Source of the DNA: an uncultured Alphaproteobacteria bacterium
GTDB taxonomy: Bacteria > Pseudomonadota > Alphaproteobacteria > Rs-D84 > CACZYB01
Length of the DNA: 64,000 bases
Reading direction: 5' to 3'
Assembly: GCA_944390685.1 (NCBI GenBank)
Contig: CALXQL010000006.1
Coordinates: forward strand, 24,108-88,107
In this document: piece after piece, positions 1 through 8,706 of the stretch
Layout: every line of letters begins with the position of its first letter
Position numbering within the stretch: position 1 is the stretch's first letter
Notes under the pieces: model-generated
Databases searched by the model: none
The model's input: the letters and a program-made list of their open reading frames with translations, nothing else
What the model was told of the DNA's origin: nothing
Translations under genes and position numbers: made by a program

Positions 1-786
1 TTTTGGAAAAAAAAAGGTTATGATTTTGGGAAAAGGGTATTAAATAAATTTGATAAAGAATTTTTCATAAAATGTGTTAAAAATTTACCAAATGGACAAT
101 TATGGTTACGTCAGGGATGGATTTCCGATTGTTCTTTTTCTCAAGAATCTTGGAAACTAATAGCTGAAATTAGTTCGTTACTAAATTCTTTTAAAATTAG
201 ATTACTTATAATAACAAAGATTCACTATACTCCTAAAAAATCTACTTTGGTAGAACTGGCTAAAAATAATGTTGAAATTAGAGTGTCTTTGTCTGCTCTT
301 GATACTGAAAAAGAATATAAAAACAGATTAAAATTTTTAAATATGTATAGAGATTTAGGAGGATTATCTATACCTTATATAATGTCATCTAAATATAAAA
401 ATGAAGAATTGAATAAAAATCAACTAGTTTTGGTTAATTATGTTATTGAAAATGATTTTATAGCAGGGGAACATCCTCTGCGGTTTGATAAAGGGAATGA
501 AATAATTAAAGATTTAGAAGAATGTGGATTTTCACATACTAAATTTCCAAATCAATATTGGTTTGGTAGACTTTTTTATAATATTCCAAACTTTATTTTG
601 CCACCACCTACCCATTTGAAAGAAAATTATTTCTTACCTACTTGTTATTTCTCACATTTAGATATGGAACATAAAATTGTTGGGTTAGATGGAAATTTAC
701 CAACATTTGAACAATTATCGAAAGATTCAACTCAAAAAACGGAAGGCTTAATGAAACATGCAGAATATGTTATACAAAAATATTAA
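1..786 (+). CDS. Hypothetical protein, 5'-truncated by the window edge. The reading frame is open from position 1, and the ORF track reports only from the first Met at 247.
   Basis: Frame 1 has no stop between position 1 and the TAA at 784-786. No recognised catalytic motifs. Faint resemblance to TIM-barrel beta strands of radical-SAM/photolyase-like proteins (IRVSLSALD), not supportable without an HMM search. Confidence 0.4.
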   Translation, partial: FWKKKGYDFGKRVLNKFDKEFFIKCVKNLPNGQLWLRQGWISDCSFSQESWKLIAEISSLLNSFKIRLLIITKIHYTPKKSTLVELAKNNVEIRVSLSALDTEKEYKNRLKFLNMYRDLGGLSIPYIMSSKYKNEELNKNQLVLVNYVIENDFIAGEHPLRFDKGNEIIKDLEECGFSHTKFPNQYWFGRLFYNIPNFILPPPTHLKENYFLPTCYFSHLDMEHKIVGLDGNLPTFEQLSKDSTQKTEGLMKHAEYVIQKY

Positions 787-1438
787 CAAGCAATTTTTTA
801 ACAGGATTAATGATGCTTTTAATGCATTAAAAAAAGATGGATATTATATTTTTAATGCAGGTAATTTATCAAAAGAAGACTTCTTAAATTTTTCTTATAG
901 CTTTGGAGAAGTGATTCCATCAGGTAGAGGAAAGGAAATGGTAGATGATATTTTTATAGGAGGTATCCAAAAACAAAGTTCATTACCTCTACATACAGAC
1001 AAAAGTTATTGGCGATTACCTCCTAGTTTTGAAATACTGTATGTTAATGATGTTTATAATATGAAGCATGGAGAAATAATCGTTGGAAATTTATTGGAAG
1101 CATTTAAACAACTGTCACCTGTGGAACAAAAAGAATTACTTGATTTTGAAGCGGTATACAAATCTCCTCAAAATAGAGATGAAGGAACAATAAAAGTAAA
1201 GTTAATTGGAAAAATAGATGATGATATATCTTTTTTTAGGTATAGATTGGATATTTTTGATTCATCAAGTCCTACAATAACTAAATGGAATAATATAATA
1301 AAGGATAACTTAATTTTTGTTCCTTATAGAAAAGGAGATGTTCTCATTCTTGATAATAAATTACACTGTGCAGGAAGAAATAATACTACATGGGGAGAAA
1401 ATGGTTCAAGACATTTATATAGAACATTAGTTATGTAA
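758..1438 (+). CDS. TauD/TfdA-family Fe(II)/2-oxoglutarate dioxygenase-like protein
   Basis: 226 aa. Has LPLHTDKSYW (an HxD iron-binding motif) and a distal His in LHCAGRNNTTW, typical of the TauD/gamma-butyrobetaine hydroxylase fold. Overlaps the upstream ORF by 29 nt in another frame. Confidence 0.5.
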   Translation: MQNMLYKNINKQFFNRINDAFNALKKDGYYIFNAGNLSKEDFLNFSYSFGEVIPSGRGKEMVDDIFIGGIQKQSSLPLHTDKSYWRLPPSFEILYVNDVYNMKHGEIIVGNLLEAFKQLSPVEQKELLDFEAVYKSPQNRDEGTIKVKLIGKIDDDISFFRYRLDIFDSSSPTITKWNNIIKDNLIFVPYRKGDVLILDNKLHCAGRNNTTWGENGSRHLYRTLVM

Positions 1439-1478
1439 AACTATAAAATTATGTAAAACATACAATATATTCTTTCAA

Positions 1479-2330
1479 TTAATGTGTGTTTTGAAATGTT
1501 TTTATAATTGTGTCTTTTGTTATATTGTTTGAATTAAATTTACGAAGTTCTTGTCCACACAAAACAATTGGAAGTTTATTTTTTCTAGCAAAATTATAAA
1601 ATGGTTGTTCGAAAGGGTATCTTTTTTTTTGAATATCTAGTAATACTCCATGAGGATATAATTCTTCTAGAATAATTCCAACAATAGAATATGTTTTGAT
1701 TTGTTTTTGACAAAAATCTTTATCCGCATGAAAATCTACTACTGTGTTTATTAAATTTGCATAATACTGAATTTCTTTATTCATATCAGCAATATTTACA
1801 AATGAAGCTAAGTGTTCATTAATATATTCAAAACAACCAGGTGCTAATTTTGAAAGTCGAATTGTTTCCATTCCAGACATTTCTTCTATATAATCTTTAT
1901 TTTTGTCCCATGCTACATCATATATGGAAAATGGAAATGTTTCATCATAATCAGGTAATATACTAATATATTTAAATTCAACATTTTCTGCTGAAAAAAA
2001 TTCTTTAAGTTGTTCATTTAAAAATTGTACTTTCTTATATTGTGTTTTTTCTCTAAGTACATTAACATTCGATGTTAATGCATTACTATGCAAAGAAAAA
2101 AAAATTAAATCATTTTTTGATAATCCTAATAATAACGAATTTATGAAAGAAAAGTATGTTCTTTTGGAAAGAAATCCGAGTTCTTGTATAAAGGAAACCA
2201 TTCTATATAAAAACTTTATAAATGCATCTGTTTGGAATTTTTGTAAGTTTGTTAAACCTATCGACTTAAATAAATCTGGATTATGATGTTCGATATCAAA
2301 AATTATCTTTCTAATATATTTTTCTTCCAT
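1479..2330 (-). CDS. Hypothetical protein (283 aa), no recognisable domain
   Basis: Long ORF with the lysine/asparagine/isoleucine-rich composition typical of genes in this window. No signal peptide and no family motif identified. Confidence 0.45.
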   Translation of the reverse strand: MEEKYIRKIIFDIEHHNPDLFKSIGLTNLQKFQTDAFIKFLYRMVSFIQELGFLSKRTYFSFINSLLLGLSKNDLIFFSLHSNALTSNVNVLREKTQYKKVQFLNEQLKEFFSAENVEFKYISILPDYDETFPFSIYDVAWDKNKDYIEEMSGMETIRLSKLAPGCFEYINEHLASFVNIADMNKEIQYYANLINTVVDFHADKDFCQKQIKTYSIVGIILEELYPHGVLLDIQKKRYPFEQPFYNFARKNKLPIVLCGQELRKFNSNNITKDTIIKTFQNTH

Positions 2331-2444
2331 TTATAAATACCTAAAATATACCTAACGGTATAATAGTAATCTATTATTGTATTTTGTCAATATTTACTTG
2401 CAACTAATTACAATTTCATATATAATAGTATATATAGTTAGATT

Positions 2445-3125
2445 ATGAGGTATGCTATGCTGTTATTTTTATTAGGAGGAACTAATATTTCAAAAGAAGA
2501 AAAGAATAATTTAAATCCTCCTTTTTCTTCATTGGAATTTGATGTGGAATTTTTGAAACTTGTAAAAAAAAATAAACCAAATATTCTTTTATTACCTACT
2601 GCCAGTGAAATATTAGATAGAGAACATATTTATGAGAAGCGATTTATTAAACAATTTAAGGAATATTTAAATTGTAATGTGGATTCTTTATATTTATCCA
2701 AAATTCGTTCTACAATTAAAATTCAAAAAAAGTTAGATTGGGCAGATTGTTTTTATATATCAGGTGGGGATCCAATTCAACTATTGAATATTTGGAATGA
2801 ATCTAATTTTATAAAATTATTTAAAAAGCAAATACAAACTAAGCCAGTATATGCGGTTAGTGCTGGAGCAATGATTTTTTTTAAATATGCATTGAATGGA
2901 AATAATGAAAAAGCAACTATTAAAAAAAATGGATTAAATTTTATTTCTGGATTATGTGTTCCTCATTTTAATAGACAAGAGTTGCTTCCTTTGAAAAAAA
3001 AATTACTATCAGATAATAAATACAAAATATACGGAATAAATGATGGTGAAATTCTTTTACTAAATGAAAAAGGCTCAATATATTATAGAGATAAAGAATG
3101 GCATATTTCCTCGTTAGAAGAATAG
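2445..3125 (+). CDS. Peptidase S51 family (dipeptidase E / cyanophycinase-like)
   Basis: 226 aa. Has LLLPTAS near the N-terminus, ISGGDP (the GG(N/D) motif of S51 peptidases) and AVSAGAMIF (nucleophile-Ser region). Confidence 0.55.
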   Translation: MRYAMLLFLLGGTNISKEEKNNLNPPFSSLEFDVEFLKLVKKNKPNILLLPTASEILDREHIYEKRFIKQFKEYLNCNVDSLYLSKIRSTIKIQKKLDWADCFYISGGDPIQLLNIWNESNFIKLFKKQIQTKPVYAVSAGAMIFFKYALNGNNEKATIKKNGLNFISGLCVPHFNRQELLPLKKKLLSDNKYKIYGINDGEILLLNEKGSIYYRDKEWHISSLEE

Positions 3126-3802
3126 ATATTTCTAAAAAAGGAAACAATTTTAGACTACTAGATATACTCGTAAACCTTAACATAAGACAGGCTCTATCTT
3201 ACAGAAACGATAAAAAAATTCCATAATTGTAAGTTTGAAATTTATAGTAGCAAAATTAGAAGATATTCGAGTAATTAAGGACTTCAAACAATGGCAAGAA
3301 ACCTATAAAAAGATTGAATATTTCAAGAAAAACTATACGTAAAATCACCAGATAAATATAGCCTATCAAAATATAAAAAATAAACTCACCTAACTTTGTA
3401 ACCCTATGGGAACGAAGTGAAAAATTAATTCTTTAAGATTTTCCAATAACCACTATTATCTGGACCAACTCGTTTAATAAAGCCATTTTGTTAGTTTGTT
3501 AAGATTATACTTTATTCCATCAGGAGAAATACCTATCTTATCATATAACTATTGTCTTGTAATTTTAGGATTTTTAGTTAATAAGTCTAAAATTTTCTGG
3601 GTAGTGTTTTGCTTTTTTGGGGTAGTAGATTTTAAAAATAATTTAATCTGCATTTCTTCATTATTAAGAAGATTTTTCTTACCCAAAAGAATTAAACTTA
3701 AAATATACTAGTGTTAAAAATAAAAATTAACATAAAATATTACTTGAGTTATATCAAAATAAAAACGTATAATAAAAAATTATAACTAAAAGGGTTTATA
3801 AA

Positions 3803-5574
3803 ATGAAGTTATCAAAAATAAGAATAAAGAATTTTCGTGGTCACATTGATACAACTGTAAATATATCAAATTTAAATGTTATAATAGGACCAAATGATAT
3901 TGGAAAATCATCAATAATAGATGCTTTTGATATATATTTTAATGATTATCCAATAGATATTTCAGATGTAAACGTATTTATACCAGAAAATACGCCCAAA
4001 ATTGTTGAAATTTCTTGTTCTTTTATTGTTGATAAAAATGAGGCAGTTACACTAGACGCTAGTGAAAATACAGCAACATCTTTAGCTTCAGAATACTTAT
4101 TAAATAAAGATGGATTTCTTGAAATCTGTAAAAAATATGATTTTAGTACAAATAAAATAAAAAAAAGTATTCAGATTATAACAAAACACCCATCTAATTT
4201 TACACCTGCATTAATATTACAAAAAATAAACGATTTAAAAAAATTAGCTTCTGATAATAATATTACCCCAACTAATAATAATATAAAAAAAGACATAAGA
4301 AAAGCGATTTTTGAACAATATCCTAACTTAAATTGGGATAATGAATTTACTATTGAAGTAGAAGCAAAGGAAAACGATATTACACAAATTTTTAATAAAT
4401 TCAAAGACGATTTTCCAACATATATGGTTTTTCGTGCAGATAGAACAAATACAGATAAAGATAAAGATAAAGAAGTTAGTGAAACCACAAATGCAATTAC
4501 AAAAAGTGTTGTATCAGAACTAGAAAACGAATTTAATAATATAAAAAATAAAATAACAGATCAAATAAATACTTTAGCACAAAAAACACTCGAAAAACTA
4601 AAATTATTCGATGAAAATATATCAAATAGTTTAAAATCAAATATACAAACAAAACAACTATCCTCTTTATTTTCATTTACATTTGATTGTGATAATGGAA
4701 TTTCATTTAATAAAAGAGGAAGTGGTGTAAAAAGATTAATGTTATTAAGTTTTTTTCTTGCTGATGCAGAACAAAAAAATACAAACAAAACATTATATAC
4801 GCAATAGAAGAACCTGAAACATCACAACATCCAGATTATCAAATAATGTTAATAAATTCTTTAAAAGATTTATCAGATAAAAATAACAGACAAATAATAA
4901 TCACTACACATACTCCAGAAATAGTAAAAATTGTAAAAAAAGAAAATCTAATCTTTTTAAATAAAGATAGATCAAATATACTAAAGATACAACAAAATGA
5001 AACTTTAGAAATCAAAAAAATTGTTGATAATTTAGGAATTCTACCATATGTATCTTATAAAGAGGTAATATTTGTAGAAGGAAAAACTGATATAAGTTTT
5101 CTTAAAAATTTAAATCAATTTCAAGACTGTAAGAATATAATTGATATAACGCAATTTTCAATTATAGAATTAAATGGTTGTGCTAATGTTGATACATGGA
5201 TAAAAAATGACTATTTAGAAAATTCAAATATTAAACGTTTATATTTTCGAGATAGGAATAATAATAAAATAGAAACGGAAAATCAAAAAAACAATGTTAT
5301 AATAACAAAAAAAAGAGAAATAGAAAATTATATACCATATAATTTAATTGAAAACTACTTCAATATTGCTTTCACAAAAACAGAAAAAGAAAATTGGAAT
5401 GATATAGATGTTACTAAACATATACGAGGTAAAATAAATAACAAATACAAAAATGAAGATATAAAAAGAATATTAGAATCTCGAGATATATGGAATAATT
5501 TAAAATTACCAGATGATAGTATGAATGAAATAAAAGAATGGTTTAATAAAATAAAAAACTATTTTGATGACTAA
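3803..5574 (+). pseudogene. OLD-family ATP-dependent endonuclease (ABC-type ATPase plus C-terminal Toprim; class-1 OLD or fused PARIS AriAB-like), interrupted by a +1/-1 frameshift in an A7 tract
   Basis: N-terminus MKLSKIRIKNFRGHIDTTVNISNLNVIIGPNDIGKSSIIDAF is the OLD/AAA_15 Walker A. The ABC signature-like KRGSGVKRLMLLSFFLA lies before the break. Part 1 runs 3803..4807 in frame 2 and ends TLYTQ*. A different frame (frame 1) is open from 4765 after an in-frame TGA (4762-4764) and reads IIYAIEEPETSQHPDYQIM...QIIITTHTPE (Walker B and H-loop) up to the ATG at 4846 where the ORF track starts the second ORF. The second part also carries VIFVEGKTDISFLKNL, a Toprim motif. The reading frames swap at acaaaaaaatacaaacaaaa (4771..4790). 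Confidence 0.7.
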
Positions 5575-5798
5575 TTAATAGAATTTATAACGTATTGATT
5601 TTAAGAACTTCCTTTATAAATAAGAAAATAAAAATGAATACAGAAGAAGTAACAAATAAACTTATTAATTATATTCAACAAGCAAGAACATATCCATAAA
5701 AAAACAAATGATAAATCTATATTAGTAGCCAGATCTTTATATAGTGTAATTATTAGTCTAGCAAATAATGTTATATTTTGTATAAAAAACAACGAAAT

Positions 5799-6053
5799 TT
5801 ATTCTGCAAATGCTATAAATTGTAAATGCTTTTTATTCCAATGCCTACCAAGAATATTGCACTCTATCTGCTTCATTATTCGTTTCAGATTGTCTATTGA
5901 TGTGTATAAATTACTACTTTTTATATTCTCATGAAACTGTATTGTTAGCATATAGTTCGGCTTATATGTATCATCTATCCATTTCTTTAGCTCTTCCTTT
6001 ATTCTCATATTATTATGATATTGCTTCCATCTAGTTACCATACTTTCTATCAT
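5799..6053 (-). CDS. Short ORF (84 aa), possible N-terminal remnant of an HUH rolling-circle replication/relaxase-type protein
   Basis: MLTIQFHE resembles Rep motif I (uTuTu). About 40 aa downstream, KKHLQFIAF resembles motif II (an HuQ variant). The ORF stops before any motif III tyrosine. Weak, motif-level only. Confidence 0.3.
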   Translation of the reverse strand: MIESMVTRWKQYHNNMRIKEELKKWIDDTYKPNYMLTIQFHENIKSSNLYTSIDNLKRIMKQIECNILGRHWNKKHLQFIAFAE

Positions 6054-6421
6054 TCATATTATCATTATGCTTAATTGTGACTAGAATTATAACAAACAAA
6101 AATTTAAGGTTTTGCGTTATAAAAGTTATGACAGACTTTCTCCAAACAGAAAGATTTACAGCCTATGTATACAAAAAGTCCTATTATAATTTTCTAGAAC
6201 CGAACAATCTTCTAAAACTAATAACTATTTAACAAAGTACTAAAAAAACGGTTTTACTTAAGTTAGTAACCATATGGTAACGAACTCTATTATAAAAAAA
6301 GGCCCCCATTTAACGAGAGCCTTTTTAGTAAGTTTATCACTAAAAAATTAACAATTTAATACATTACAATGAAAATTTTCTAAATACAAAATATCCTTAC
6401 ATGTAAAAGGGCTTTTTTTAT

Positions 6422-6551
6422 AATTAATGCTTCTCACAAAAATATGAGGTCTTAGCTCTGGATCCACAACTCAGGTCCCCTGTCCCTCCCTAGAGGTAGG
6501 GGCTAGGTTGTTATACCAGTATCCAGGGCTCCCATCATAAAAGCATTAATT
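6422..6551. repeat. GC-rich palindromic structured element of about 130 bp (candidate small RNA, att-site remnant or MITE/RPE-like element)
   Basis: Perfect 11-bp inverted repeats aattaatgctt (6422..6432) and aagcattaatt (6541..6551) flank a GC-rich core (6446..6536), in sharp contrast to the AT-rich surroundings. The inner stem gctctggat (6455..6463) pairs with atccagggc (6521..6529) allowing one G-U pair. Further internal hairpins include CCCUA/UAGGG. Confidence 0.45.
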
Positions 6552-6588
6552 AAGAAAAATTTTCACTGTACAAATTAATAAGACTAAA

Positions 6589-6777
6589 ATGAAAAGTAGT
6601 TTTACAATTTTAGGTGAATATATACAATCTAAATATCCAGATAAAACACTCACAGATTATGAAACAGATGTAATGGTAAATAATATAGTTCAGTTTTTTA
6701 CCATAGGTGCAAAAATGGCTTATAACTATAAGAAAAACGGCGAAAATCTACAAAAAACTGCGTACAAATCAAAATAA
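6589..6777 (+). CDS. Short ORF (62 aa) of unknown function inside the degraded island
   Basis: ORF only. It lies immediately upstream of the recombinase fragments and may be another fragment. Confidence 0.25.
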   Translation: MKSSFTILGEYIQSKYPDKTLTDYETDVMVNNIVQFFTIGAKMAYNYKKNGENLQKTAYKSK

Positions 6778-6809
6778 TCCCTGTATAATATTAATATAAA
6801 GAATATGAA

Positions 6810-7632
6810 ATGATTAAATTTATAAAACAACAAAGAGGTAAAATACTTATTGTTGCTAATACAATTGATCGTATTCAAAGAAGATTTAAAGAATACAGTT
6901 TGTTAGATGATCTTCGTCGTGATAATAAAATTGAAATGTATTTTATAAGAGAACGTTTAACTATTAACTCTAAATCAAACGGTTATGAAATTGGTACATG
7001 GACTCAGGGTATTATGTGAGTTCAACAATATGTTATGCAATCAAGTGATAACATAAAAAGAGCAAATAACGAAAGCCGTGATAAAGGTAGATGGTTGCAT
7101 AAAGCCCTATTTGATACATTAATTATAAAGATTAATCAACTCTTGCAATGGTTAAGATAGATTCAATAAAAGGTTCTCTTTTTGCTCAAATGTTAGAGCA
7201 ATTGCTAACTATGCAAATAAAATAGGTCTTACAACTGGCTCTGGTAGAAAAATAACTAAAAAGAATGCAAATTATATGATACATAATACTTTCTATTATG
7301 GAGTAATGAGAACTATTGATGTATACAGAGCTCATACATGTGGTAATTTAATTACTAAAGAATTGTTTGATAAAATTCAAGAAGTAGCTTCAGGAAAATG
7401 CAAACCTTCATTTACAAAAAGAGCTGATACATTTATTTTTAGTGGACTATTAAGATGTGCTATATGTGGTTGTGCTATAACACCTGAAAGACATACTAAA
7501 AATAATGGAAAAACTTATACATACTTAAGATGCTTTCATTATGATCATAATTGTAAGCAACTATTATTGAATAAAAATGTCGTTTTACAACAAATAAAAG
7601 AAAAAATTTTTGATAAAAAAGAGAGATTTTAA
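6810..7632 (+). pseudogene. Serine recombinase (resolvase-type catalytic domain, recombinase domain and zinc beta-ribbon) broken into at least three frames
   Basis: 6810..7019 encodes GKILIVANTIDRIQRR (the DRLxR motif of the resolvase catalytic domain) and KIEMYFIRERLTINSKSNGYEIG. 7021..7275 in other frames gives ...GLTTGSGRKITKKNANYMIHNTFYYGVM (recombinase domain). 7276..7632 gives FSGLLRCAICGCAITPERH...YTYLRCFHYDHNC, the zinc beta-ribbon of large serine recombinases. In-frame stops lie between the pieces, and no intact N-terminal Ser nucleophile region was found. Confidence 0.65.
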
Positions 7633-7729
7633 AAATCATAAATTCGAACTCTTTGCTTGATGGAAAAAAGATAGTATTTTCAATAGCTAAGCATTTGATT
7701 TGATAATAAAAAATGATGAAAGTGTAAGA

Positions 7730-7806
7730 TGGTGGGTGATGAGAGACTCGAACTCCCGACCCTCTCGGTGTAAACGAGATGCTCTAGCCAACTGAGCTAA
7801 TCACCC
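7730..7806 (-). tRNA. tRNA-Val (anticodon TAC)
   Basis: Minus-strand sequence GGGTGATTAGCTCAGTTGGCTAGAGCATCTCGTTTACACCGAGAGGGTCGGGAGTTCGAGTCTCTCATCACCCACCA. 7-bp acceptor stem, D loop AGCTCAGTTGG, anticodon loop TTTACAC, T loop GGTTCGAGTC, CCA encoded. Confidence 0.9.
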
Positions 7807-7905
7807 GAAAGATGTTATTATTATATAACTCTTTTTTCTTTTTTCAAGTCTTTTTTCTTGTTTTTTACATTTTTTATTTTATAGTCTTATTTAGAGGTAT
7901 TTATT

Positions 7906-8136
7906 ATGAATAATGATGAACTTATAAAAAAGGCTAAATTACTTGGTTTAACAGATCAAGAAATTCAACAATTCATTGAAAATCAAGAAATTGCAAAAAA
8001 GTATGGGATAGATGATGATTGTTATTCTATAAATGTAGAAATAGATGAATCTATATTAAATGAAAATAATCATCATCATTGCGATTGTGATGATGATTGT
8101 TGTGGTGAGTGTTGCTCTGAGTCTCATAATAACTAA
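7906..8136 (+). CDS. Small protein (76 aa) with a helical N-terminal half and an extremely Cys/His/Asp-rich C-terminus (putative metal-binding)
   Basis: An agagg RBS lies 7 nt upstream of the ATG. The C-terminal 25 aa are NNHHHCDCDDDCCGECCSESHNN (6 Cys, 4 His). The gene is convergent with dut, and its stop abuts the dut stop. Confidence 0.55.
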   Translation: MNNDELIKKAKLLGLTDQEIQQFIENQEIAKKYGIDDDCYSINVEIDESILNENNHHHCDCDDDCCGECCSESHNN

Positions 8137-8604
8137 TTAATTTGTTCCACTACTTCCAAAACCTGAAATTCTATTAGCTTTAGGAAGTTCTGTTTCATCT
8201 TTTACTATTTCCATATCAAGTTGATATACTGGTTCAATTACACATTGCCCTATTCTCATACCTCTTTCTATTACTATTGGCTCATTTGAAAGGTTGATTA
8301 CTATCATGTGAACCTCTCCTCTATATTCATTATCAATAGTTCCTACCCCATTTGGCATAGAAAGGCCTTGTTTTAAAGAAAGTCCACTTCGTGATCTTAT
8401 TTGATAACCAAAACCATCTTCCAATGCCAATTTAAAACCAAGTGGAATAAGGCATCTTTCTTTTGGTAATATAGTAATAGAAGGTTCTTTAATACATGCC
8501 CTTACATCAAAACCAGTATCAGAAGGATAAGCATATTTCATCGGTCCCCAATTTTTTAAATCATAATTTTCAAGATATAATATTTTCCCTTTTACTTTTT
8601 GCAT
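8137..8604 (-). CDS. dut: dUTP diphosphatase (dUTPase)
   Basis: 155 aa with the canonical motifs GFDVRA, RSRSGL, GTIDNEYRGE and GFGSSG. Confidence 0.9.
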   Translation of the reverse strand: MQKVKGKILYLENYDLKNWGPMKYAYPSDTGFDVRACIKEPSITILPKERCLIPLGFKLALEDGFGYQIRSRSGLSLKQGLSMPNGVGTIDNEYRGEVHMIVINLSNEPIVIERGMRIGQCVIEPVYQLDMEIVKDETELPKANRISGFGSSGTN

Positions 8605-8657
8605 TTAGATTTCCTTTCGTCTTAAGAAAGTTTAAAATATTTAATAAAAAAAGTAAA

Positions 8658-8690
8658 TTAAAAAAGCCACCATTTAAGGTGACTTTTGAT
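8658..8690 (-). terminator. Rho-independent terminator-like hairpin downstream of the 8707..9120 gene
   Basis: aaaaagccacc/ggtgactttt stem (8661..8687). On the minus-strand RNA a U-run follows the stem. Confidence 0.4.
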
Positions 8691-8706
8691 TTATTTTTTG
8701 AGTGAT

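Follow-up and report, generated by a model that had tools for sequence, protein, structure and literature searches.

The left-hand end of the 64,000-nt stretch of DNA analysed here (the window), which comes from an uncultured alphaproteobacterium, is occupied by part of a small genomic island that abuts the 3' end of an intact tRNA-Val(TAC) gene (Table 1). From left to right, this part carries a split OLD-family nuclease, a fragment of a Rep-like gene, an intact 62-aa open reading frame (ORF) and, immediately before the tRNA gene, the wreck of a large serine recombinase (LSR, or serine integrase) gene, while an S51 peptidase, a TauD-like protein and unassigned ORFs make up the other cargo. The GC content is 22–26% in positions 1–6000, compared to about 28% window-wide. 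The window reads in genetic code 11: long table-11 ORFs tile it, and the stop codons of 45 long ORFs are TAA (37), TAG (6) and TGA (2).

Table 1. Features of the island, its tRNA target and the integrase remnant. Positions refer to the window unless a relative is named; percentages are identities.
Feature	Position	Strand (frame)	Evidence or remark
Part of the island within the window	1–7729		distal end ~730 bp left of position 1
OLD-family ATPase + TOPRIM nuclease (AriA/GajA-like), two ORFs (3803–4807 and 4846–5574)	3803–5574	+
Rep-like gene fragment, 84 aa	5799–6053	−	tblastn: 56% to L001 458–670, 52% to L017, 36% to L016
Intact 62-aa ORF directly upstream of the integrase	6589–6777	+	55% identical to a 55-aa ORF, L004 9776–9943
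Catalytic (resolvase) remnant, with DRxxR	6798–7109	+ (+3)	L001 residues 69–172, 83% (tblastn)
Start of the recombinase domain	7115–7216	+ (+2)	L001 residues 175–208, 56% (tblastn)
Remainder of the recombinase domain and zinc beta-ribbon (C-x2-C ... C-x7-C)	7210–7617	+ (+1)	L001 residues 217–353, 64%
C-terminal tail, first part	7617–7691	+ (+3)	L001 residues 468–492, 60% (tblastn)
C-terminal tail, last part, antisense through tRNA-Val	7697–7765	+ (+2)	L001 residues 495–517, 52%
7-bp core TGGTGGG (CCCACCA on the tRNA strand, the last 7 nt of the tRNA)	7730–7736		attB (L094) against both L090 junctions
Intact tRNA-Val(TAC), integration target	7730–7806	−	ARAGORN; Rfam RF00005, 67.3 bits
Lesion 1: 5' deletion of ~221 nt			start codon and codons 1–70 gone, including the invariant RVS(Ser24) nucleophile motif
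Lesion 2: in-frame TGA for Trp141	7017–7019	+	TGG in L001 and L004
Lesion 3: 1-nt deletion (GCC C-T), frame shift −1	near 7105 (hinge 7100–7135)	+
Lesion 4: TGA for invariant Gly174	7112–7114	+	three-frame comparison with L001 and L004
Lesion 5: TAA for Glu181	7133–7135	+
Lesion 6: out-of-frame deletion of ~20–31 nt	near 7200	+	alignment gap; Tyr204 and Gly207 lost
Lesion 7: ~343-nt deletion, frame shifted	junction 7606–7617	+	residues 354–467 lost
Lesion 8: 1-nt deletion	near 7692–7696	+	tblastn HSPs 7617–7691 and 7697–7765
Hinge break in the window: 1-nt loss at about residue 172	7100–7114
Hinge break in L001: TGA at invariant Gly165	L001 8572–8574
Hinge break in L004: out-of-frame 5-nt loss, residues 170–172	L004 10500–10520

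A serine integrase gene in five frame segments

Only five of the 5.8 billion proteins searched matched the integrase, namely two resolvase-domain halves (P0003 and P0004) with 84–87% identity to the window, two C-terminal halves (P0001 and P0002) with 58–66% identity, and a distant fragment. Full-length reconstructions of 518 and 512 aa were obtained from the contigs bearing these homologues; the contig of P0002 (L179) shows the C-terminal half and is too short to span the N-terminal half. Divergence from the two relatives that served for comparison, L001 and L004, gave dN/dS values of 0.08–0.25 with saturated dS, and most of it arose under purifying selection.

When the L001 reconstruction was aligned to the window by tblastn, the integrase wreck extended from position 6798 to about 7765 in five collinear frame segments of 52–83% identity. 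The initial annotation, made from the letters and their ORF translations, had described a dead LSR with a zinc ribbon, encoded by three segments in different frames and ending at 7632. All the peptides that it quoted are indeed present at 6810–7632: IDRIQRRF, with the DRxxR motif, is located in ORF 6810–7019, and both MIHNTFYYGVM and the zinc-ribbon peptide LLRCAICGCA...YLRCFHYDHNC are located in ORF 7276–7632. Several frames are therefore in use, as had been claimed, but the latter two peptides share one frame and one ORF; a third frame exists, in the form of a short piece that holds the start of the recombinase domain and not the zinc ribbon. The proposed end proved too early, with the tail running about 130 nt further and entering tRNA-Val antisense.

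The identification as an LSR was borne out by profile searches. The frame of ORF 7276–7632 matched the Pfam families PF07508 (Recombinase; 33.6 bits, cut-off 21.1) and PF13408 (Zn_ribbon_recom; 34.7 bits, cut-off 25.3), with the N-terminal part of the recombinase domain lying in another frame, with stops, and with all four cysteines of the zinc beta-ribbon in place (CAICGC...C-x7-C). Among the three profiles that had been proposed as a check, PF00239 (Resolvase) alone stayed below its threshold, reaching 17.1 bits against 23.3 over profile positions 55–106 in ORF 6810–7019 and its read-through. Even so, the homology of the catalytic piece is secure, because it is 83% identical to L001 residues 69–172 and 87% identical to P0003, both of which carry PF00239.

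A profile built from 27 family members matched the catalytic domain of the TP901-1 integrase (3bvp, E = 1.3e-14) and, over profile positions 177–470, the RD/ZD/CC part of the A118 serine integrase (4kis, E = 4.2e-14), and the L001 reconstruction matched PHROG 95 'integrase' at 3.9e-55; the ancestor was therefore a bona fide large serine recombinase. A single-sequence PDB search (phmmer) did not find the A118 and TP901-1 structures, identity being too low for it, and a 5-sequence profile was uninformative; the 27-sequence profile found them. The family shares its domain order (resolvase catalytic domain, recombinase domain, zinc beta-ribbon with a long insert) with phage-type LSRs such as Listeria A118 Int and lactococcal TP901-1 Int, and also phiC31 and Bxb1, the profile matches to TP901-1 (3bvp) and A118 (4kis, 6dnw) being at about 1e-14. 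It differs from these phage-type enzymes in that its members are predicted to target the tRNA 3' end with an ORF that reads across the junction; the copy in the window, moreover, no longer functions.

Comparison with L001 and L004 revealed eight disabling lesions, five of which are indels (Table 1). Frameshifts and stops had been noted before, but this account of the damage was incomplete, as it lacked the 5' deletion and the large deletion in the C-terminal part. The former was evident from L004 9986–10210, which has no counterpart in the window (blastn), and it removed the ARVSS region with the nucleophile Ser24, which, like Arg22 and Gln28, is invariant in 27 relatives. For the latter, L001 8299–9147 matched window 6804–7617 and L001 9479–9731 matched window 7606–7856 (blastn); the missing residues correspond to the region aligned to the coiled-coil/ZD insert of A118, which is kept in the relatives, aligned to A118 Int 39–319, so the window copy lacks the coiled-coil insert of the zinc-ribbon domain, through which LSRs control directionality, as well as an uninterrupted frame. 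Gly174 and its neighbour Tyr175 are invariant columns of the family alignment. All three nonsense changes are G-to-A or G-to-T, the direction expected under AT-biased mutation. Given eight disabling lesions, the gene has been non-functional for a long time. On its sequence, the window copy is clear in ancestry and not a functional member of the LSRs, and we put the probability that 6798–7765 is the non-functional remnant of an LSR gene, lying at the tRNA-proximal end of an 8.45-kb island, at roughly 0.9.

Some of the lesions could in principle be read through, if TGA encoded Trp or Gly (code 4 or 25) and/or if a programmed frameshift at the hinge, where the catalytic domain meets the recombinase domain, kept the gene functional. 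Indeed, the TGA at 7017 stands where the relatives have Trp and that at 7112 where they have Gly, and L001 and L004 are interrupted at the hinge too. However, the two TGAs would need two different meanings, a TAA stop is present as well, and long table-11 ORFs tile the window and its host genome. As for frameshifting, the three hinge lesions differ in kind (nonsense, 5-nt loss and 1-nt loss) and have no slippery motif in common across the three lineages, which led us to reject both an alternative code and a programmed frameshift. Moreover, the gene has physically lost its start codon, its catalytic Ser and, in the C-terminal domain, about 114 codons, and because of these deletions recoding is effectively refuted for the window copy, its probability being next to nil.

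A further possibility is that the 118-aa ORF 7276–7632, which spans the last part of the recombinase domain plus the zinc ribbon, has been kept as a stand-alone DNA-binding protein, which might, for instance, bind att-like sites or block related incoming elements. This ORF is intact with an ATG start, preserves the zinc-ribbon cysteines, and was predicted as a gene on four contigs of the same species. These contigs are, however, at least 99.87% identical to the window overall, which makes the conservation uninformative; furthermore, the ORF is devoid of the N-terminal two-thirds of the recombinase domain and of the coiled coil, its stop codon was created by a deletion junction, and the neighbouring island genes are decaying too. 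We consider such a retained function improbable.

The hinge is broken within about eight codons in all three of the closest lineages, that is, in the window, L001 and L004. For L001 and L004 the hinge break is the sole lesion, and each of the two breaks was seen on 3–6 independent contigs from different samples. The chance of two lesions falling within eight of 518 codons is roughly 0.03, and it is possible that the shared position is due to chance. Alternatively, a mutational hotspot or selection may lie behind these breaks, and such selection could act either to ground the island or in favour of a separately made DNA-binding half.

Boundaries, target and content of the island

The distal end of the island lies outside the window, and contig L090 was the sole source for it. 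L090 is 99.87% identical to window 1–11088 and reaches 1.85 kb beyond the left edge to recA and lexA; on this contig the island measures 8,454 bp (L090 3360–11813) and is inserted exactly at the 3' end of tRNA-Val. The same integrase wreck occurs on four contigs from other metagenomes, L090 among them, each with at least 99.87% identity to the window. Three further contigs of the same species (L094, L095 and L097) represent the empty site, in which dUTPase, tRNA-Val and recA follow each other with nothing between the tRNA and recA, and the island that had been suggested on the grounds of an integrase beside a tRNA is thereby seen directly. On the dUTPase side, L094 and the window align over 10,875 nt without a gap and with 48 mismatches (99.56% identity), and on the recA side all three empty-site contigs are 99.3–99.5% identical over 1.1 kb. 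L094 also encodes LpxK, which points to a Gram-negative bacterium.

The alignment of L094 to the window stops exactly at 7730, and on L090 the same contig aligns to 1485–3359 and 11814–12952 with a 7-nt overlap. CCCACCA is the only sequence common to both island ends, with its distal copy at L090 11814–11820, and the crossover must, judging from these junctions, have occurred within this core. We searched for the distal repeat of the tRNA end inside the window and found none, because that end of the island lies ~730 bp to the left of it. The tRNA-Val sequence is identical in occupied and empty strains, and the insertion parted the tRNA from a hairpin terminator that it shares with recA in the empty strains. 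The locus hence combines the features of a genomic island: a preserved tRNA, an empty site in relatives, a distal direct repeat, and an integrase at the boundary together with cargo. We also considered whether the tRNA had been carried by the element and rejected this, since the alignment of L001 to the window over 50 nt past the tRNA is accounted for by the general structure of tRNAs and a −10-like promoter box alone, and since the empty site has the tRNA as well. An acidic ORF of 76 aa, whose tail is rich in Cys and His (HHHCDCDDDCCGECCSESH), was noted at 7906–8136, between the genes for tRNA-Val and dUTPase; it is 100% conserved in carrier and empty strains and therefore belongs to the core genome, not to the island.

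Serine integrases leave a short identity at the element's ends, for example 7 bp, and tyrosine integrases acting at tRNA genes usually leave longer repeats. The 7-bp identity is consistent with attP × attB recombination by a serine recombinase, in which the crossover spans 2 bp. The island might nevertheless have been inserted by a different enzyme, for instance a transposase or a tyrosine integrase, that has since disappeared, in which case the LSR would be mere cargo or would belong to a nested element. Tyrosine integrases classically target tRNA genes, a tyrosine integrase gene adjoins the LSR island on contig L179, and tandem elements occupy one tRNA on contig L018. Against this, there is no remnant of a tyrosine integrase or transposase among the island ORFs of at least 62 aa scanned in 1–7729, the integrase abuts the junction at constant spacing in the window, L001 and L004, this abutment recurs in 53 of 80 relatives (see below), and the end repeat is of 7 bp only. 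An insertion by a lost enzyme of another type thus appears very improbable, and we infer that it was catalysed by the serine integrase now wrecked at 6798–7765.

Regarding the island's other genes, homologues of the intact 62-aa ORF also lie upstream of the integrase in L001, L004, L016 and L017. This ORF had no Pfam, PHROG or PADLOC match and is, from its position, a candidate recombination directionality factor or regulator. In L001 (7860–8024), by comparison with the window and L004, a frameshift affects the C-terminal third of the small ORF, the alternative frame matching window 6707–6799. The full-length form of the Rep-like gene encodes 155 aa in L001 (464–931), and the gene is shared by the islands L001, L016 and L017. 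The L001 protein weakly matched PF23343 REP_ORF2-G2P (rolling-circle Rep; E = 6e-5), below the cut-off. The presence of a Rep-like gene in islands of this integrase family suggests that the excised element may replicate. The nuclease is broken within its AAA_15 domain, of which positions 1–323 are found in the first ORF and 348–374 in the second, which also holds the OLD-like_TOPRIM domain. Its best PADLOC matches were AriA (2.5e-33) and GajA (3.2e-13), and this split OLD-family defence nuclease is probably a pseudogene.

Two structured elements were observed in the AT-rich spacer between the Rep-like fragment and the 62-aa ORF. The first is a strong hairpin followed by a T-run at 6292–6330, apparently a bidirectional intrinsic terminator; terminator look-alikes at 6290–6380 gave spurious sub-threshold Rfam matches to leaders and sRNAs. 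The second, at 6415–6560, is a GC-rich imperfect hairpin of 146 nt that is closed by an inverted repeat of ~11 bp (AATTAATGCTT) and has a minimum free energy of −49.6 kcal/mol (z = −4.9). It is single-copy across the window and all loci, and the equivalent spacers of ~130 nt in L001 and L004 are without it. Rfam returned no match to this hairpin at gathering or E-value thresholds, and an exact 36-mer from it was absent from the metagenome and viral collections. It may have arrived as a MITE-like insertion, or it could serve the adjoining Rep-like gene as an origin.

History and age of the insertion

We propose that the ancestral island would have entered the chromosome by LSR-mediated site-specific recombination, in which the extreme 3' end of tRNA-Val(TAC) served as attB, with the core inside CCCACCA, and in which attP spanned the last codons of the integrase gene. 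The tRNA would have stayed intact while being parted from its own terminator and from recA. The integration module would then have decayed, the Rep-like gene and the OLD-family nuclease breaking as well, as the integrase lost its catalytic Ser and coiled-coil regions and gained three stops and three further frame-shifting indels. Owing to these losses, stops and frameshifts, the island would be unable to excise itself and would be 'grounded', and since the integrase, the Rep-like gene and the nuclease are all broken, the whole island looks grounded and decaying.

The insertion had been dated as old on account of its dead integrase. This holds for the gene, which is long dead, but not for the age of the island, whose presence or absence varies among strains that are only ~0.44% diverged and which therefore does not predate the species. 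Indeed, the integrase carries eight lesions, among them five indels, compared to no indel and 0.44% substitutions in 10.9 kb of flank between carrier and non-carrier, and its decay looks older than the split between these strains. As the decay looks greater than the divergence of the flank would allow, the dead island may have been spread by homologous recombination of its flanks, or the empty allele may have been regained. From this mismatch we infer the relative timing of insertion and decay: likeliest is that an already dead island was passed around by homologous recombination of the flanks, as eight lesions otherwise fit awkwardly with the ~0.44% strain divergence, while the island may, alternatively, have been lost later in the empty strains.

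Similar endpoints have been described. In so far as the accessible text of an article on 'grounded' prophages and islands (Front Genet 2019, PMC6379469) describes them, these elements become fixed after decay of the integration/excision machinery, as here; compared to the examples in that text, the window island is small, non-phage and still polymorphic in the species. The tycheposons and cryptic elements of Prochlorococcus (Hackl et al., bioRxiv 10.1101/2020.12.28.424599) are likewise small cargo-carrying integrative elements, many of them with replication genes, and complete and partial tRNA genes appear on the element maps. Of 937 such elements, 27 have a large serine recombinase; tycheposons are overwhelmingly of the tyrosine-recombinase type. 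The hosts here are gut and host-associated low-GC bacteria, and the two kinds of element are likened by description and not by LSR sequence. The object in the window is real but ordinary, a serine integrase that is dead and marks a small grounded island at tRNA-Val. This island, which varies in presence from strain to strain and carries decaying defence cargo, is mapped as to insertion point, size, core and empty-site control, and the interest lies mainly in the family of its integrase, which is large and apparently little-described.

A wider family of serine integrases at tRNA 3' ends

A scan of one genome per GTDB species identified at least 483 relatives of the integrase. The best 80 of these (L010–L089) are intact ORFs of ~500 aa that are 25–38% identical to the L001 reconstruction, and their hosts comprise Candidatus Enterousia, other Alphaproteobacteria, Rickettsiales, many CPR/Patescibacteria, Dependentiae, Elusimicrobia and others. 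In 53 of the best 80 the stop codon lies 12–291 nt inside a convergent tRNA gene (for example at 11474–11550 in both L013 and L067). Enough 3' sequence to judge such an overlap was available for 71 of the 80, and 18 of these 71 are without an overlapping tRNA, although one of the 18 has a tRNA 43 nt downstream and another ends on a 47-nt tRNA fragment in a tandem array. The target tRNAs of the 53 are those for Pro, Leu, Gln, Arg, Asn, Glu, Trp, Asp, Ser and Tyr; counting tRNA-Lys (L001), tRNA-Arg (L004) and tRNA-Val (window), this amounts to twelve amino-acid specificities in all.

The arrangement of small ORF, integrase and convergent tRNA is conserved in L001, with tRNA-Lys, and in L004–L008, with tRNA-Arg. 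Direct repeats derived from the tRNA 3' end were found 7.6–10.2 kb upstream in L013 (20 nt), L067 (30 nt) and L047 (17 nt), a spacing that agrees with the 8.45 kb of the window island. About 12–13 codons separate the VFSITKP motif from the tRNA end in the window, L001 and L004, and given this constant spacing one attP arm would overlap the last integrase codons. No stop codon belonging to the integrase ORF itself occurs ahead of the junction. As the ORF reads across the junction into the tRNA antisense, the C-terminus would differ between the integrated and the excised form, and such a form-dependent C-terminus could feed into directionality control.

Based on these patterns, judged from sequence, we tentatively raise the possibility that the remnant is a dead member of a large, uncharacterised, multi-phylum clade of serine integrases that would insert elements of ~8–10 kb at tRNA 3' (CCA) ends. 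Recombination at tRNA ends by the enzymes of this clade is a prediction. To our knowledge, the characterised phage-type LSRs integrate into protein-coding or intergenic sites and not into tRNA genes. In a TIGER/Islander survey, 14 of 297 S-Int islands were located at t(m)RNA genes, a use by S-Int of which the authors write that it 'has not been reported previously' and has yet to be proven by experiment (Mageeney et al. 2020, PMC7192596). Those islands likewise join an integrative element with a serine integrase to a tRNA gene; the clade described here differs in comprising at least 53 tRNA-abutting members among 80, mostly from uncultured small-genome lineages outside that data set. We found no description of a tRNA-end serine integrase clade in the searchable literature library, a gap that would not in itself make the clade novel.

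For genome engineering with large cargo, serine integrases are the tools of choice, and they are regarded as avoiding tRNA genes. A clade with predictable and highly conserved targets could provide new integrases for hard-to-engineer CPR, Dependentiae and gut Alphaproteobacteria, and it could mark islands in metagenome-assembled genomes.

Viral contigs gave no evidence for a phage nature of the element: only six short ones (4–8 kb, L099–L104) matched at about 29–35% identity over most of the protein, and the remaining matches were weaker. Tandem arrangements were observed at two loci. The integrase of L018 ends on a 47-nt 3' fragment of tRNA-Gln (11474–11520), and a complete tRNA-Gln follows 5.4 kb further on (16881–16954). 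On L179, a tyrosine integrase gene (1139–2347) lies after the LSR gene, which illustrates that tRNA sites can hold tandem elements.
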